64,000 nucleotides of DNA, taken from NCBI GenBank assembly GCA_019244185.1, contig JAFATB010000022.1:1-64000 (forward strand). The letters are read 5' to 3'. The notes under the pieces were generated by a model. It had not been told where the DNA came from, did not search any database, and was given only the letters and a program-made list of their open reading frames with translations. Source of the DNA: Acidobacteriota bacterium (lineage in GTDB: Bacteria > Acidobacteriota > Thermoanaerobaculia > Gp7-AA8). This document shows positions 28,151 through 35,702 of the stretch, piece after piece. The position numbers and the translations under genes are program-made. Position 1 is the stretch's first letter, and each line of letters starts with the position of its first letter.

Positions 28151-29995
28151 TCACCGCCGCCCGCCCACGACCGCGCGCAACGTGCGCAATCGGAGGTCGA
28201 GTTCTTCGGGCGTGACGTTCGCGTATTTCGCAGGCAGGAGGCGGCGGCTGGAGGCTTCGAAGACGGCGAGGAGCTCCATGTATTCGAGCAGCTCGACGTC
28301 GCGGCTGGGGAAGTAGTCGGCCGCGGCGCGGATGAAGCGCTCCTCGCTCACGTCGTCGACGCCTTCGCGCGCGGCGTCGTCGAGCGCCATGAGCACGACC
28401 GCTTCGACGTCGGCGTTGCTGTAGCCGACGAGCTTCTTGGAAAACGAATCGCGGATGGCGGCGAAGTCGACCCGCGTCTTCACCTTGTTCTTGCGCACGA
28501 CGGCGCGGGTGATGTTCTCGACTTCTTCCGGCGTCTGTGAATAGAGGAACGGGATCTTGCGGTCGAGGCGTCCCGCGCGTTTGAGATCGACGTCGAGTTT
28601 GTCGGGACGATTGGTCATCACGAGGAAGAGGATCCGTCCGCGGTTCGACGTGTCGGACATGAACTCCTTGATGCGCGCGATGACGCGTGACGACGTGCCG
28701 CCGTCGCCGTCTTCATCGGTGTTGCCGAACGCGCGGTCGCCTTCGTCGATGATGACCACCACCTGGCCGATGGCGCGGATGACGTTGAGGATCTTCTCGA
28801 GATTGCCTTCCGTCGCGCCGACCCACTTCGAGCGGAAGTTCTTCAGCTTGATCGTGGTGAGGCCGCACTCTTTCGCGAACGCCTCCGCGACGAACGTCTT
28901 GCCGGTGCCCATCGGTCCGGTGAAGAGCACGCCCATCGGCACGCGCGCGGTCTGTCCCTCGCGGATGCTGTTGGCGATGACGTTCAGATCTTTCTTCACT
29001 TCTTCCATGCCGCCGACGACTTCGAAGCCATGCACCGGCTCGACGAACTCGACGAGGCCGAAGCACTCGCGCTCGAGAATCTCGCGCTTGCGCTGCGCGA
29101 TGAGGCGATCGACTTCCTGCCGGGCAATGTCCGTGCGTTGCCCGTCGAGGCGCTCCGGCAGCGACGCGCCCGGCGCGAGCAGCTTCGCGATCTCGTCGCG
29201 GTTCATCCCCGCGGTGAGCTGCGCGAGTTTCTTCGCGCGCTCCGCGACGTCCGCGCCGCTCCCCAGAATCCCCGCGATGAACGTCTCCCGATCGCGCGCC
29301 TCGGTCTCGCTGACCGGCGGCGGCGTGAGGATCGTGAGGATCTGCACGGCTTTGAGTCCCGCCGTGATGTCGGCGTAACGCTCGGTCTCTTTCTCCGACA
29401 GCGACGGATCGGCGAGCGCGGCGGCGGCCTTGCGCGTGTCGCGATCCGGCATCGGCACGTCGACGACGGCGACTTTCGGATTCGAGATCAGCTTCGGCGC
29501 GAGCTCGGCGAGGTTCTCCGCGATCAGGATGACCACGTTGTCGCAGCGCTCGATCTCGGGCAGGAACGACCAGCGGTGCAGCGTGACGACGGCGGCGCGA
29601 TCGCTCTCGCTCTGGAAGTTCGGATCGCCGGCGGGGGAGAGGACTTCCGCGTACTCGAGGATGATCGCGGTGCGCGAGTTGTTGAGCAGCAGGCGTTCGA
29701 GCGCGCCGAGGACGGCGGGCTTCTCGTTGGCGTGGAGTTGTTCGTCCACGGCGCGCTGCCCTTCGGACGGACGCTTGAGAAACCGCACGCCGGTGGCGAC
29801 GTTGTAGACGGCGATGGTGTCCTTCGATTCCTTCAGCAGCACGTTGCCGAGGAACTCGGTGAGCGTGAGCGTCCGTCCGCCGCTCAGCACGACGTCGTAG
29901 ACGTTGCCATGCAGCACGAAGATCGAGGCCTCACCGCGCAGATAGCGGCGGCGGAGATCGTCGGCCCAGCCGGGGAGAATGCGCGGGTCGGACAA
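28151..29995 (-). CDS. AAA+ ATPase (classic clade; degenerate N-terminal AAA-like domain + active C-terminal AAA domain, Ycf46/Vps4-like)
   Basis: VGGMEEVK, Walker A GPMGTGKT, pore loop SKWVG, Walker [25 protein letters not shown]. Confidence 0.92.
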
Positions 29996-30925
29996 TCAGA
30001 CCTCCATCGTCTTGAGGATTTTCTCGGTGTCGATCGCCGTCTGGCGGATCGACTCGACGCCGTCGAGCAGGTCGTTGAGCTGGCCGGAGAGCTCGGCCGG
30101 CGACTGCATCATCACGATCTGGTCGGCGATCAGCCGGAACGAGTTCTCGATCAGATCGAGCTGGCCGCGCGCGACGCGCAGGTAGTCGCGCAGCTCGTGC
30201 AGCTTCTCGATGCGCTTCATGATCACGGCGAAGTTTTTCTTCGCGACGTCGAGCTCGGGACCGGAGACGTTCGGCACCTGCATGCGCTGCTGCCAGCGGT
30301 CGCGGTCGCGTTCGAGCTCGCGCAGGTCGATCGTGCCGAGATAGTTCTCGTAGCGCGAGCAGGTGATGGCCATCTCCAGAAACGCGTCGACGAGCCGGCG
30401 CGTCTTCACGAGCTCCGTGCGCAGCAGTTCGCCGGTGAACGACGGGTTCTGCGCGGCGAGGCGATTGATCTCTTCCTGTTTCGCGACGAGATTGTTGACG
30501 CGGTCGCGCTCCTGCTGCGGCAGGTCTTTCATCCGCTCTTCGCGCTCGCGCGCCTCGTACGCGAGCCGGATTTTCTCGAGGCGCGGATCCCACAGGATGC
30601 GCTGCAATGTTTTCGATTCAGGGCCGTGCAGCAGCCAGATCGCTTCGGTGCCCAACGCCACCGCGGCGAGCACGGGGTTCATCGTCACGGCCGCGGCGGT
30701 GAGCGAGCCGAAGAAGAGCGAGAGGTTGTACGGGTTCGAGAATGCGAGTTTGAGATACGGGTGTTTCTCGAACGCGGCGTTGACGACGAGATCCTTCGCC
30801 GTCTCGCGCACGGCCTGCTGCATCTGCTGCTGGGCCGAGGGCGGCGTCACCGTTTTCTGGAGCGCGGGCGTCGCCGTTTTTTGCGGCTGCGGGACCGCGG
30901 GACGCTTCTGTTCGATCGGCGACAC
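29996..30925 (-). CDS. Hypothetical protein: hydrophobic hairpin followed by long coiled coil
   Basis: NPYNLSLFFGSLTAAAVTMNPVLAAVALGTEAIWLL, then E/R/L-rich heptads. Its stop directly abuts the AAA start. Confidence 0.8.
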   Translation of the reverse strand: MSPIEQKRPAVPQPQKTATPALQKTVTPPSAQQQMQQAVRETAKDLVVNAAFEKHPYLKLAFSNPYNLSLFFGSLTAAAVTMNPVLAAVALGTEAIWLLHGPESKTLQRILWDPRLEKIRLAYEAREREERMKDLPQQERDRVNNLVAKQEEINRLAAQNPSFTGELLRTELVKTRRLVDAFLEMAITCSRYENYLGTIDLRELERDRDRWQQRMQVPNVSGPELDVAKKNFAVIMKRIEKLHELRDYLRVARGQLDLIENSFRLIADQIVMMQSPAELSGQLNDLLDGVESIRQTAIDTEKILKTMEV

Positions 30926-30947
30926 GACCGTATTGTATCGGTCCGGC

Positions 30948-34317: not shown

Positions 34318-35022
34318 TTACATCGTCTTCTGTCCCTGCGCGGCCTGCTGCGCGGCCTTGCGCGCCTTCAGCTCCGCGAGCTCCTGCTTGGCCTGCACGT
34401 CGCCGACCTGATTGCGCAGGTTGGCCAGACGCGAGTCGAGCGACGTGTCGGAGAGCTCCTTGCCGAGGTTGGCCTCGGCGATGGTGTTCTTGATGTGCGT
34501 GCGGACGTTGTCGAGCGCGCGGACCTCGTCGTCGACGGAGAGACCGTCGAGCTGCTCCTGAATCTTGAGGCGCGCCTGCGCCGACTGCATCTTGGCCAGC
34601 ATCGAGTCGCGCTCGGCCTTCAGCTTGCGGATCTCCGACTGCACGGAGAGGAGCGACGACTTCGCGGAGTCGGCGTCGTTGCGCGCGCTCTCCATGTCCG
34701 TCTGCAGCTCGGCGAGATCGGCGTTGAGCTGGTTCTTTTTCTGGATCAGCACGACCGCGAGATCGTCCTGATTCGTTTCGACGGCGGTGTTGAGCTCCGC
34801 TTCGGTCTGCGCGAGCTCCGCCGTCGCGCTCTTGAAGCGGTCCGCGAGCTCGTCGCGCCTGCGGATGATCGCGGCGGTGGCACTCTTGAGCTTCGCGTAC
34901 TTGCCGACCATCGAGTTGATGGCGTTCTCGTACGCGATCTCCGGATGATCCTTCTCGATGTCGGAGATCCACAACGAGAGAAAACCCTTCCACAGATTGC
35001 CTAAACGTGAAAACACACCCAT
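34318..35022 (-). CDS. pspA: PspA/IM30-family protein (ESCRT-III superfamily)
   Basis: Amphipathic N-terminus [22 protein letters not shown]; long coiled coil; [12 protein letters not shown]+[10 protein letters not shown]-terminal ELAELKARK. Confidence 0.88.
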
Positions 35023-35045
35023 GGTTTCTCCTCAGCTCCCCTTCG

Positions 35046-35702
35046 TCAGTTCGCCGGATTGGGCTCGTGCAGCTTCGGCGACTCGCGCACGACGCGCGCG
35101 ACGGCGTCCTGTCCGAAGAACTCGAGGACTTTCTGGACCTCGAGCTTCTTGGCGTTGCAGGACTTCATGACTTTCTGTTGTTCTTCAACGCGCTGCTGCA
35201 TGGCCGCGCGGAGATTGGCGATTTCTTCCTCGTACTTTTTGATGCGCGTCTCCGCCTCGGAGGTGATCTGCTCGGTGTCTTTCGCGCCGCCGCGGATGTA
35301 CGCGTCGAGCGCCTGCAGTTCTTCCGCGCCGGTCTCGATGATCTTCTCGATCGGCACGCCGAACGCGCGCAACGACGCCAGCACGATCTGCTTCTTGACG
35401 GCGTCCTCGGTTTCCGGCGGCAGGGAGTTGAGGAGGTCGAGCGTGCGCGAGACGCGCTGGTGCTCCTCGGCCGTGATGCCCGCGGCCTCGTAGACGCCGT
35501 CGAAGTCGACCTGGCCCGCAGGTGCGGTGGGCGGGGCGGAGGTGAAGACTTCCGGCGCCTGCGTCGCGCCCGCGTCGGCGGCGCCTTGGATCAGCGCGTC
35601 GTCCGGCGCGCCCGCGGTGCCGGCAGGGCCGCCGCTATCCGGTGAGTCCTGAACGACGAACCACCCCATGACCGTGGAGCCCCAGCTTTTTTTGTCCGAC
35701 AT
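35046..35702 (-). CDS. Hypothetical helical protein, first gene of the pspA operon
   Basis: MSDKKSWGSTVMGWFVVQD (amphipathic), Pro/Ala linker, LLNSLP..KKQIVLASLRAFGV, C-terminal coiled coil. Confidence 0.8.
   Translation of the reverse strand: MSDKKSWGSTVMGWFVVQDSPDSGGPAGTAGAPDDALIQGAADAGATQAPEVFTSAPPTAPAGQVDFDGVYEAAGITAEEHQRVSRTLDLLNSLPPETEDAVKKQIVLASLRAFGVPIEKIIETGAEELQALDAYIRGGAKDTEQITSEAETRIKKYEEEIANLRAAMQQRVEEQQKVMKSCNAKKLEVQKVLEFFGQDAVARVVRESPKLHEPNPAN

Follow-up and report, generated by a model that had tools for sequence, protein, structure and literature searches.

The operon described in this study probably encodes a system in which ATP drives the remodelling of PspA and to which an ABC module of the envelope is coupled, as one member of a widespread bacterial system; we give this reading a probability of about 0.55. 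The gene content, the domain identities, the intact catalytic motifs, the co-conservation of the genes and the permutation of their order were observed. The co-conservation supports the conclusion that the seven genes behave as one unit. A sequence-only reading had earlier proposed a self-contained membrane repair or remodelling machine at this locus. Its observation of the operon was confirmed and its interpretation was partly supported.

The window, which is the whole stretch of DNA analyzed, is 64,000 nt long. The operon spans positions 28151-35702 and consists of seven tightly packed open reading frames (ORFs), all on the minus strand and at the coordinates first given for them. The operon-bearing DNA comes from a soil bacterium (Acidobacteriota). 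Domains were called by Pfam and NCBIfam profile scans of the translations, and the features are as follows.

35046-35702, minus strand: g1, protein without a family, 218 aa
34318-35022, minus strand: g2, PspA/IM30, 234 aa
32644-34272, minus strand: g3, fusion of membrane anchor, solute-binding protein (SBP) and OmpA domain, 542 aa
31841-32644, minus strand: g4, ABC importer permease (TauC/SaoP-like), 267 aa
30948-31841, minus strand: g5, ABC ATPase (TauB/ProV-like), 297 aa
29996-30925, minus strand: g6, helical protein with a hydrophobic hairpin, without a family, 309 aa
28151-29995, minus strand: g7, double-domain AAA+ protein, 614 aa
28547-28930, minus strand: active AAA module of g7, Pfam PF00004 at residues 356-483, with motifs read in the translation and in alignment A2
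35703-35801, no strand: intergenic region upstream of g1, common to a divergent BlaI-like gene, sequence read

The ORFs and their junctions bore out the co-oriented, packed arrangement. The stop and start codons overlap at 32644 (TAATG) and at 31841 (TGATG), the stop codon of g6 abuts the TTG start of g7 (29996/29995) and the remaining gaps in the operon are 23, 45 and 22 nt. Likewise, the identities proposed for PspA/IM30, the TM-SBP-OmpA fusion, the permease, the ABC ATPase and a classic AAA+ protein with an SKWVG pore loop agreed with the Pfam and NCBIfam matches, the hydropathy and the translations. Close to the start of g1, the intergenic region carries an extended -10-like element, TGCTATATT; the palindrome GTGAACTA..TAGTTCAC and the direct repeat CGTCAACCGG are also present. 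Related loci have -10-like elements of a similar kind 5-25 nt before g1, and the BlaI/BlaR1 neighbour is not kept among them.

To describe conservation, the g7 alignment was used to fetch 80 loci, of which the 43 with at least 7.5 kb upstream were taken as informative; these loci, and the genomes counted below, include related genomes and are not independent samples. All seven genes were found in 29 of the 43 loci in four different orders: 1234567 (23 loci), 2345617 (2), 1634527 (1) and 6'3451'27 (3). The sequence-only reading had named separation of the ABC genes from pspA and the AAA+ gene in other genomes as the outcome that would count against it, and co-conservation was found instead. PspA was near g7 in 37 informative loci, the ABC ATPase gene in 36, g6 in 32 and g1 in 31. 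Loci with the gene set occur in Acidobacteriota, Myxococcota, Bdellovibrionota and Lysobacterales, and distant Acidobacteriota loci, fetched separately, have orders such as 7123456 and 4567123, in which this set is circularly permuted. Recurrence in dozens of genomes puts the arrangement far beyond chance.

Genome content was also counted in a sample of 151 Acidobacteriota genomes. The g7 N-terminal domain was present in 32 of them (counted from tables), 27 of which also had PspA, within ~6 kb on one contig in 17 genomes. Only 5 of the 102 PspA-negative genomes had g7. In the reverse test, starting from g3, 17 genomes of this sample were g3-positive, and in 13 of them PspA directly adjoined the SBP-OmpA gene. 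Several results count against the main reading. First, PspA and g7 lie on separate contigs in 10 of the 27 genomes with both. Secondly, five g7-positive genomes gave no PspA match. Third, g7 is alone in 5 of the 43 informative loci, beside unrelated genes (e.g. RNR, LpxC).

The distribution of the operon type also bears on whether the cluster could be a mobile accessory island, such as an anti-phage or competition defence with PspA and an AAA+ effector, rather than part of housekeeping envelope maintenance. Close g7 orthologues (E<=1e-80) were found in 16 of 301 Acidobacteriota genomes, with 73-74% identity in other families of the phylum and with most genomes of the same class lacking one. 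This patchiness is joined by a quick g7 tree, in which Myxococcota, Bdellovibrionota and Lysobacterales surround the Acidobacteriota clade, and by the high PspA identity across phyla (60-87% across three phyla in alignment A4). However, no system-specific protein was returned by PADLOC, whose matches were to generic domains only (ZorB/MotB for OmpA, IetA for AAA, mad3 for the ABC ATPase), the conserved set is without a nuclease, integrase or toxin-like gene, and the flanks vary between loci. A mobile island is considered highly improbable.

g2 is a PspA/IM30 protein of the ESCRT-III superfamily, which matched PF04012 over its full length (76.1 bits, cut-off 33.9; residues 2-222 on model positions 1-218 of 220); no other protein of the genome passes this Pfam cut-off. 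The C-terminal end of g2 (...KTM) is conserved, as is a predicted amphipathic helix, alpha-0, at residues 2-21 with a hydrophobic moment of 0.37 (alignment A4). It was rejected as a PspA of the E. coli type (TIGR02977 equivalog, 52.8 bits against a cut-off of 242.95).

The E. coli PspF-PspABC system has an established role in envelope stress and resembles the operon in linking PspA functionally with an AAA+ protein and with small partners in the inner membrane. However, PspF is a sigma-54 activator from another AAA+ clade and is inhibited by PspA, whereas the 64,000-nt window is devoid of such an activator, the genome gave no PspB match and no -24/-12 promoter was found upstream of the operon. 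This agrees with the earlier statement that no pspB, pspC or pspF is present; the sole PspC domain of the genome lies on a different contig from the operon.

The two unnamed components, g1 and g6, matched no family in Pfam or NCBIfam. g1 begins with a conserved N-terminal motif, KKxWGSTVxGWFVV, and continues with a linker that is disordered, a small domain of helices and then a helix of 79 residues (alignment A3). Its AF2 model (pLDDT 77.6) places helices at 67-73, 78-93, 100-113, 118-196 and 198-207; a PDB fold search with it gave no match at E<=0.001, and profile comparison with PspA (hhalign) gave probabilities of 0.3% and 5.7%. g1 had been described as an amphipathic-helix protein. The helical hydrophobic moment of the conserved motif is just 0.08, against 0.37 for PspA alpha-0, and therefore that label is unsupported.

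g6, of which >2,000 homologues exist, has a variable N-terminus, a hydrophobic helical hairpin at ~65-99 and a predicted cytosolic helical bundle at ~110-309. The transmembrane hairpin proposed for it was recovered as a hydrophobic hairpin, but this is short and moderately hydrophobic (peak 1.78) and therefore may be re-entrant instead of spanning the membrane twice. Its AF2 model (pLDDT 73) matched non-specific helical bundles only, with no ESCRT-III chain among the matches listed. The best non-designed fold match of comparable size was the SNARE-like IncA (Z 10.7, rmsd 3.4, 134 residues) and a profile match to the SNAP-25 SNARE motif had an E of 0.45; both are below significance. No homology to PspA was detectable by hhalign (probabilities of 0.1% and 0.6%) and no Snf7 Pfam match was found at E<=10.

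g6 resembles PspM (Rv2743c) of M. tuberculosis and LiaI of B. subtilis in being a small membrane protein encoded beside pspA. PspM and LiaI are membrane anchors that bind PspA homologues, and by analogy g6 may recruit PspA. The PspM-like label that the sequence-only reading had given to the topology of g6 was not supported: a protein-language-model search ranked an Rv2743c cluster first among those with names (score 0.86, 179 shared features), but none of nine g6-family proteins matched the Rv2743c Pfam model (PF25587) at E<=10. In addition to the loci with ABC genes, g6 occurs in three loci without them, which have the kernels 2-6-7 (L098, L099) or 1-2-6-7 (L043). We infer that g6 is a putative core partner of PspA and the AAA+ protein.

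g7 consists of a degenerate N-terminal AAA-like domain (~1-225), a helical linker, an AAA domain (356-483), a lid and a conserved C-terminal extension. The active domain is a classical AAA domain (PF00004, 93.7 bits against a cut-off of 21.2) with Walker A GPMGTGKT, pore loop FRSKWVG, Walker B VVIIDEGD and the SRH arginines RAGRLD, and these catalytic motifs are invariant or near-invariant columns of alignment A2. The N-terminal domain lacks Walker A and has LHGNVYD at the P-loop position. Its profile gave weak AAA matches, and it aligned to the C-terminal domain by hhalign with an E of 2.7e-4. The active domain aligns best with the D2 domains of Cdc48/p97 (best whole-sequence E 6e-44), and the best 60 PDB sequence matches of g7 were Cdc48/p97, VAT, NSF, Afg2, NVL and Rix7, with Vps4 absent among these. 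Judged by sequence comparison, g7 is thus a protein with a degenerate N-terminal AAA-like domain and a predicted active C-terminal domain closest to Cdc48/p97 D2. Cdc48/p97, VAT and NSF likewise have AAA-type domains in tandem; of the two in g7 one is catalytically dead, as D2 is in NSF. In g7, however, this dead domain comes first and is without a P-loop, and there is no double-psi-barrel N-domain. Membership in the Cdc48/p97 family itself (TIGR01243) was rejected (92.5 bits against 802.65, with the D2 part alone matched).

The pairing of a polymer gene with an adjoining gene for a classical-clade AAA+ protein with an aromatic pore loop resembles archaeal and eukaryotic ESCRT-III/Vps4 (CdvB/CdvC), for which the expected logic is ATP-driven polymer turnover. 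The kinship of g7 to Vps4 that had been implied was not upheld. No MIT or Vps4_C domain was matched at E<=0.01 in the Pfam scan, and the CdvC model (NF041006) scored 55 bits against a cut-off of 650; unlike Vps4, g7 has the degenerate N-terminal domain, and its nearest solved relatives are Cdc48/p97 D2, NSF and Afg2.

The closest relatives of the g7 AAA domain are unfoldases of the Cdc48/p97 type, whose substrates are many, and therefore PspA is not necessarily its client. The AAA+ protein could act mainly on membrane proteins, by extracting, assembling or resetting the ABC complex, g6 or both, as Cdc48- or Msp1-type extractases do, or as NSF does on helical bundles, while PspA only seals or stabilises the membrane at that site. 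The solved relatives of the active domain named above fit this possibility, as does the position of g6 directly before g7 (with abutting codons here) in the 23 collinear loci and in the 2-6-7 and 1-2-6-7 loci. The likeness of the g6 bundle to IncA and SNAP-25 points the same way, but it lies inside the stated noise range of the tool for helical bundles. In Myxococcota and Lysobacterales, moreover, pspA is immediately upstream of g7, with g6 not between them and sometimes undetected nearby (27, 34527), and PspA-g7 is the most constant pairing of all (37/43 informative loci). Action mainly on membrane proteins is for these reasons judged unlikely, and remodelling of PspA by g7 is preferred.

g3-g5 belong to the type I ABC importers of the NitT/TauT group, with permease, ATPase and binding protein all above the Pfam cut-offs. 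g3 combines a membrane anchor at residues 1-26 (called from hydropathy), a periplasmic solute-binding domain of the SsuA/NMT1 type at ~100-350 and an OmpA-like domain at 435-531 that is predicted to bind peptidoglycan (PF00691, 62.2 bits, cut-off 27.2). It matched NMT1, Phosphonate-bd and OmpA in Pfam, SsuA_fam and YiaD/OmpA in NCBIfam, and OprF, OmpA, Pal, SsuA and TauA in the PDB, the OmpA part also matching YiaD and MotB-type domains. g4 matched PF00528 (BPD_transp_1, 70.8 bits) and has several hydrophobic segments; g5 matched PF00005 (ABC_tran, 114.6 bits) and carries GPSGCGKST, LSGGMKQR and LMDEPF. The NCBIfam models SaoP and TauC for g4, and the taurine and SaoA ATPases for g5, were matched below their own cut-offs.

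The canonical importer features mean that the ABC parts could simply be a co-regulated transporter. The genes would then encode an ordinary importer of the sulfonate, taurine or betaine type, merely co-transcribed with a PspA stress module (e.g. in an osmotic or envelope regulon) and without a joint machine. In keeping with this, all three parts match NitT/TauT-type importers with intact ATPase motifs, the PspA-g6-g7 kernel exists without ABC genes in L043, L098 and L099, and genomes of family f21 have the ABC genes and g7 on separate contigs. Distant SBP-OmpA ABC loci (~30% identity) point both ways: a distant PspA and a g7-type AAA+ protein adjoin in 6 of the 9 fetched, but g7 was absent within 19 kb at the other three (L086, L092, L094). 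Against an ordinary importer, no equivalog model of a named transporter in NCBIfam was reached by g3-g5, whose scores were far under the cut-offs, and within the operon the ABC genes are flanked by pspA and g6 and overlap at their stop and start codons. In addition, the unusual anchor-SBP-OmpA architecture, also found in Haliangium and Tahibacter loci, is kept beside PspA and g7 over four phyla, down to ~28-30% identity and in several orders, one of them a divergent arrangement in Haliangium. Mere co-transcription is thus considered somewhat more doubtful still than action on membrane proteins, and coupling of the ABC module to PspA remodelling is retained.

The sequence-only reading had supposed that surveys might list similar contexts. 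One passage of Ravi et al. 2024 (mSystems, PMC11237479, section 18) already describes this operon type, and the operon falls in that class, since its co-oriented genes encode PspA, an SBP-OmpA protein, a permease, an ABC ATPase and a protein with two AAA+ domains, the N-terminal one inactive. That passage proposes the same role, ATP-dependent membrane remodelling linked to solute transport. It mentions "Snf7 homologs with a TM segment", whereas g6 here is without detectable PspA or Snf7 homology. Relative to the passages of that paper, this study adds the conserved unnamed g1 and g6, the permutation of the gene order and the share of sampled Acidobacteriota genomes that have the system (32 of 151). 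No experimental work on the operon type turned up in literature searches, in agreement with the earlier reading. A 2025 review states that a Vps4-like ATPase appears absent in bacteria.

The kernel of the proposed system would be PspA as an ESCRT-III-fold membrane polymer, the hairpin membrane protein g6 and the two-domain AAA+ protein g7. In most members, the genes of the NitT/TauT-type importer are placed between the kernel genes, with g1 first; its membrane-anchored binding protein would also be fixed to peptidoglycan through OmpA. We infer the protein-protein contacts, PspA as the substrate of the AAA+ protein and the role of the ABC module as follows. PspA would assemble on the cytoplasmic face of the inner membrane, and g6, perhaps with g1, would hold the PspA/AAA+ pair at the membrane beside the ABC complex, which may import a small solute or report on the state of the periplasm or wall. 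A hexameric g7 would draw PspA subunits out of the polymer by means of its KW pore loop and its active ring, which resembles that of Cdc48 D2. As a motor of the PspA polymer, g7 would parallel Vps4 in function but descend independently, and from its sequence it would not be an orthologue.

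Seven open reading frames of the minus strand lie head to tail between positions 28151 and 35702, in a window with a G+C content of 65-70%. These genes, designated g1 to g7, and the genes on either side of them are as follows.

Genes of the operon and its flanks (window coordinates)
Within 35802-39114, plus strand: beta-lactamase-family serine hydrolase, divergent from the operon
36200-37456, plus strand: BlaR1 M56 sensor-peptidase, divergent from the operon
35802-36203, plus strand: BlaI/MecI-type repressor, divergent from the operon
35046-35702, minus strand: g1, 218 aa from ATG, no Pfam or NCBIfam family match
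34318-35022, minus strand: g2, 234 aa, PspA_IM30 (Pfam, 76.1 bits; cut-off 33.9)
32644-34272, minus strand: g3, 542 aa, NMT1/SsuA-type binding domain and OmpA domain (62.2 bits)
31841-32644, minus strand: g4, 267 aa, BPD_transp_1 permease (Pfam)
30948-31841, minus strand: g5, 297 aa, ABC_tran ATPase (Pfam)
29996-30925, minus strand: g6, 309 aa, no family in Pfam or NCBIfam
28151-29995, minus strand: g7, 614 aa from a TTG start, one PF00004 AAA domain at residues 356-483
24723-27953, minus strand: 1076-aa BNR/sialidase-like, CarboxypepD_reg, PPC and MAM protein, directly downstream of g7

The tight junctions described in the sequence-only reading were reproduced by script, namely TAATG at 32644, TGATG at 31841 and the abutment of the g6 stop and the g7 start. 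The remaining intergenic gaps, from the same kind of check, are 23, 45 and 22 nt. In g3, the binding domain is preceded by a strongly hydrophobic N-terminal segment (residues 1-26, by hydropathy). No PspB was found in the genome, a PspC domain occurs on another contig only and no sigma-54 activator lies within the window. The names that near-identical homologues carry in their sources assign the organism to Thermoanaerobaculia, Acidobacteriota. The 1076-aa protein is probably secreted or exposed at the surface, and it is outside the conserved gene set.

Representatives of the g7 family were gathered, 28 of them were aligned, and one genome per species was then scanned with this alignment. The best 80 loci include Acidobacteriota (Thermoanaerobaculia, Pyrinomonadaceae, Vicinamibacteria and Holophagales), Myxococcota (Polyangia, Haliangium and Kofleriaceae), one Bdellovibrionales MAG and Lysobacterales (Tahibacter and Chiayiivirga). 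All 80 were searched by tblastn, using the seven proteins of the window as queries, and by HMM for g1, g2 and g6. Of these loci, 43 extend 7.5 kb or more on the upstream side of g7 and are listed below; the other 37, which have less than 7.5 kb there, give partial views (such as 234567, 4567, 67 and 27), none of which contradicts the fuller loci.

Gene order at the 43 loci that extend 7.5 kb or more upstream of g7 (digits are gene numbers; a prime marks the opposite strand)
1234567: 23/43 loci
2345617: 2/43 loci
1634527: 1/43 loci
6'3451'27: 3/43 loci
274561: 1/43 loci
5'4'3'27: 1/43 loci (Haliangium, ABC genes divergent)
34527: 3/43 loci (Lysobacterales)
27345: 1/43 loci
1267: 1/43 loci
567, then an 8.8-kb insert: 1/43 loci
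27: 1/43 loci
g7 alone: 5/43 loci

The seven genes are co-conserved, with the complete set present at 29 of these 43 loci (1234567, 2345617, 1634527 and 6'3451'27). PspA is near g7 at 37 of the 43 and the ABC ATPase gene at 36. A g6-like hairpin ORF was seen by eye at one of the three Lysobacterales loci with the order 34527. The neighbours of g7 at the five lone-g7 loci are unrelated, for example ribonucleotide reductase and LpxC. Two irregularities were recorded among related sequences. In an Acidobacteriota MAG (L035:1235-10000), g6 and g7, which abut elsewhere, are about 8.8 kb apart, and the intervening stretch may be an insertion into the operon. At two further loci (L038 and L044) and in a sampled genome (G246:C10:6650-8302), several of the system's genes are present as overlapping fragments in more than one reading frame, which suggests frameshifts from sequencing errors or decay.

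A reverse test used nine loci around distant matches to the g3-type binding protein with its OmpA domain (SBP-OmpA; 28-40% identity) and five around distant g7 matches. Full-length g7, only 27-33% identical, was found at six of the nine distant ABC loci, together with PspA and mostly g6 (by HMMs), in the orders 7123456, 234567 (twice), 4567123 and 23457 (twice); at the other three g7 was not found within 19 kb. The five distant g7 loci comprise PspA, g6 and g7 without ABC genes (two), g7 alone (two) and 1-2-6'-3-4-5-7 (one). PspA-g6-g7 is the kernel that survives the deepest divergence, and the usual place of the ABC block is inserted between PspA and g6. The closest NCBIfam models of g4 and g5 are of the taurine, sulfonate or Sao type, with scores far under the equivalog cut-offs. 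These results bear on both sides of the alternative that the ABC genes are an ordinary co-regulated importer: the kernel occurs without them and their nearest models are transporters, and g7 accompanies them at six of nine distant loci. We regard this alternative as distinctly unlikely.

The SBP-OmpA protein has matches in 29 of 301 sampled Acidobacteriota genomes, only six of them close orthologues. In a 151-genome Acidobacteriota sample, whose counts are descriptive and were given no statistics because the genomes are related, g7 was found in 32 (by a specific N-domain profile) and PspA in 49 (by Pfam). Comparison of the two tables placed PspA in 27 of the 32 g7-positive genomes of this sample, within about 6 kb of g7 on one contig in 17 and on a different contig in 10; a Pfam match to PspA was absent from the other five. 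Of the 17 g3-positive genomes in the sample, 13 have PspA directly beside the SBP-OmpA gene.

The distribution of close g7 orthologues (E<=1e-80) is patchy: 16 of 301 Acidobacteriota genomes carry one. Four of the five other genomes from the window's own family do, as do a few distant families, at 73-74% identity. In a quick maximum-likelihood tree of 56 g7 proteins, with SH-aLRT support only, a 29-row Acidobacteriota clade falls inside a 47-row clade with Polyangia, Kofleriaceae, Bdellovibrionota and Lysobacterales, and much deeper Acidobacteriota lineages lie outside the 47-row clade. PspA of the window is 60-64% identical to that of Lysobacterales. The nested tree and the PspA identity fit horizontal spread, strong constraint, or both. 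The patchy distribution also bears on the idea that the cluster is a mobile defence-type island; PADLOC returned only generic domain matches and no system-specific defence protein, and we consider this idea very improbable.

The active domain of g7 has intact catalytic motifs: in the 28-sequence family alignment GPMGTGKT, the pore loop and the RAGRLD arginines are invariant or nearly invariant columns. Its nearest solved relatives by sequence are the D2 domains of Cdc48/p97 and VAT, followed by NSF, Afg2, NVL and Rix7, and Vps4 is absent among the best 60 PDB sequence matches. NCBIfam scores (CDC48 92.5, PAN 71.6, FtsH 68.5, CdvC 55) are all far under the cut-offs, and the Pfam scan found no MIT or Vps4_C domain. 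The first 225 residues can be aligned by hhalign with the family's own C-terminal AAA domain (E 2.7e-4, probability 41%), an alignment in which Walker B corresponds to IILEYAE, sensor 1 to VVILIAEN and the usual I-P-x-P-D turn to VDVPMPD; LHGNVYD stands at the P-loop position. In addition, the N-domain profile gave 12 weak PDB matches, nine of which are AAA proteins at E 0.18-0.78, all over the same region.

The g6 protein is highly conserved, with more than 2,000 homologues at E<=0.001. Its AF2 model (pLDDT 73) is all-helical with a disordered N-terminus, a hairpin in which an invariant N-P turn links two short hydrophobic helices (65-81 and 84-99), and a cytosolic bundle around a 51-residue helix. 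The hairpin is possibly re-entrant, since its hydropathy is only moderate. Foldseek gave no match at E<=0.001. An exhaustive structure aligner returned helical bundles (Z 8-11.6), the SNARE-like IncA among them at 10.7, which is below the level that the aligner calls informative for helical proteins.

Several identities were considered for g6 and rejected. First, homology to ESCRT-III/Snf7 proteins was not supported, as the probabilities from profile-profile comparison with PspA were 0.1-0.6% (for both the tool's alignments and broader ones), nine members had no Snf7/PspA match in Pfam at E<=10 and the folds matched were only generic helical bundles. Secondly, the PspM-like character suggested from sequence alone failed for lack of HMM support: the sole link to PspM is a language-model score of 0.86, and the Rv2743c model matched none of nine family members. 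Third, a SNARE- or IncA-like protein is a lead only, since SNAP-25 (E 0.45) and IncA are both under the stated noise level for helical proteins. The alternative that the AAA+ protein works on g6 or on the ABC complex seems unlikely.

Features of the g1 protein are a conserved N-terminal motif and a disordered linker. It had been taken for an amphipathic-helix protein, which the low helical moment of that motif (0.08) does not support. The model shows a small, confidently predicted helical domain followed by a 79-residue helix. No PDB match was found for the fold at E<=0.001, profile comparisons found no homology to PspA or g6, and the Atlas structure rows lead to unnamed phage and Myxococcota proteins. 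In Tahibacter (L077:8338-9195), an ORF of about 285 aa that matches no Pfam family lies between the g6-like gene and pspA, in the position expected of g1.

Some observations concern PspA itself. Elsewhere in the same genome as g2, there is a second, weak PspA-like match (L002; G000:C4:220082-220711; 327-aa ORF, 27.7 bits, under the Pfam cut-off). A K-x-(M/L)-G motif is found near the C-terminus of many Acidobacteriota PspA homologues (compared across L003-L129); close-family PspA ends exactly in KTM, and distant AAA-linked PspA carry EK[ST]LGP. These tails were rejected as an AAA+ recognition motif, since a similar K-x-M-G is present in PspA homologues of control loci, which may or may not be linked to g7.

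The intergenic region of about 100 nt common to the operon and the BlaI gene contains a palindrome, GTGAACTA..TAGTTCAC, and a direct repeat, CGTCAACCGG. BlaI/BlaR1 was rejected as the operon's regulator, as the pair is next to the system at none of the 80 related loci; the beta-lactamase-family gene is missing there as a neighbour too. Variants of an extended -10-like element, TGnTAnAAT, lie 5-25 nt before the g1 start in the window (35703-35730) and at many loci (L006, L009, L040, L078, L043, L019, L041, L017, L015, L026 and L036). An element so near the start suggests a very short or absent 5' leader. A scan for sigma-70 promoters gave no minus-strand match upstream of g1, and no sigma-54 promoter (-24/-12) was found before g1 in 21 upstream regions.

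The best-supported reading, with a probability of roughly 0.55, is an ATP-driven PspA remodelling system. In it, g7, of Cdc48-like descent, would be the analogue of Vps4, g6 (perhaps together with g1) would serve as membrane receptor, and either a solute or an envelope signal would come from the wall-tethered ABC module. The comparisons above establish the domain identities, the intact catalytic motifs and the co-conservation; we infer the substrate of g7 and all protein contacts within the system. A more specific proposal, which is tentative and somewhat doubtful, is that an ESCRT-III/Vps4-like machine arose independently in bacteria. A double-AAA+ ring derived from Cdc48, which the dedicated hairpin protein g6 would dock at the membrane, would actively take PspA polymers apart, and an ABC complex with a binding protein pinned to both inner membrane and cell wall would wire the machine across the envelope. 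Remodelling or repair would then answer a periplasmic ligand or membrane-wall geometry.

In the full-text literature searched, this operon context is described once, in section 18 of Ravi et al. (mSystems 2024; PMC11237479), which proposes a link between solute transport and ATP-dependent membrane remodelling; the supplements of that paper (Text S2.2, Tables S2/S3) may already list proteins of the g1 and g6 type and their taxa. The passages found in Popp et al. (2022) make no mention of the context. Makarova et al. (2024) confine ESCRT systems with Vps4 to archaea and eukaryotes and point out that one archaeal ESCRT locus includes a ProX binding protein, and a 2025 review states that bacteria appear to be without a Vps4-like ATPase. 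Searches of the open-access main texts listed no experimental work on this AAA+ protein, g1, g6 or the SBP-OmpA transporter. Although the operon is real and conserved, a context of this kind had been published before, and the operon adds one more member to it.

This operon family is a concrete candidate for the means by which bacterial polymers of the ESCRT-III type (PspA and Vipp1) are disassembled. PspA and the double-AAA+ gene are linked across four phyla and occur in about a fifth of sampled Acidobacteriota genomes, and at least one carrier, Tahibacter harae (strain P2K, with the pspA-g7 pair at L076), is cultured. An independent ESCRT-III/Vps4-like machine, if true, would be at odds with the statement, now current, that a disassembly ATPase is absent from bacterial PspA systems. 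Should PspA prove to be the substrate of the AAA+ protein, bacteria would join archaea and eukaryotes in turning over ESCRT-III-fold polymers with ATP, the driver would be an AAA+ protein other than a Vps4 orthologue, and the polymer would receive a new type of envelope input through the wall-tethered ABC module. Otherwise, the family is still a large conserved gene set that includes two genes without a named family. The value of the operon is that the question of a bacterial ESCRT-III disassembly ATPase becomes directly testable.
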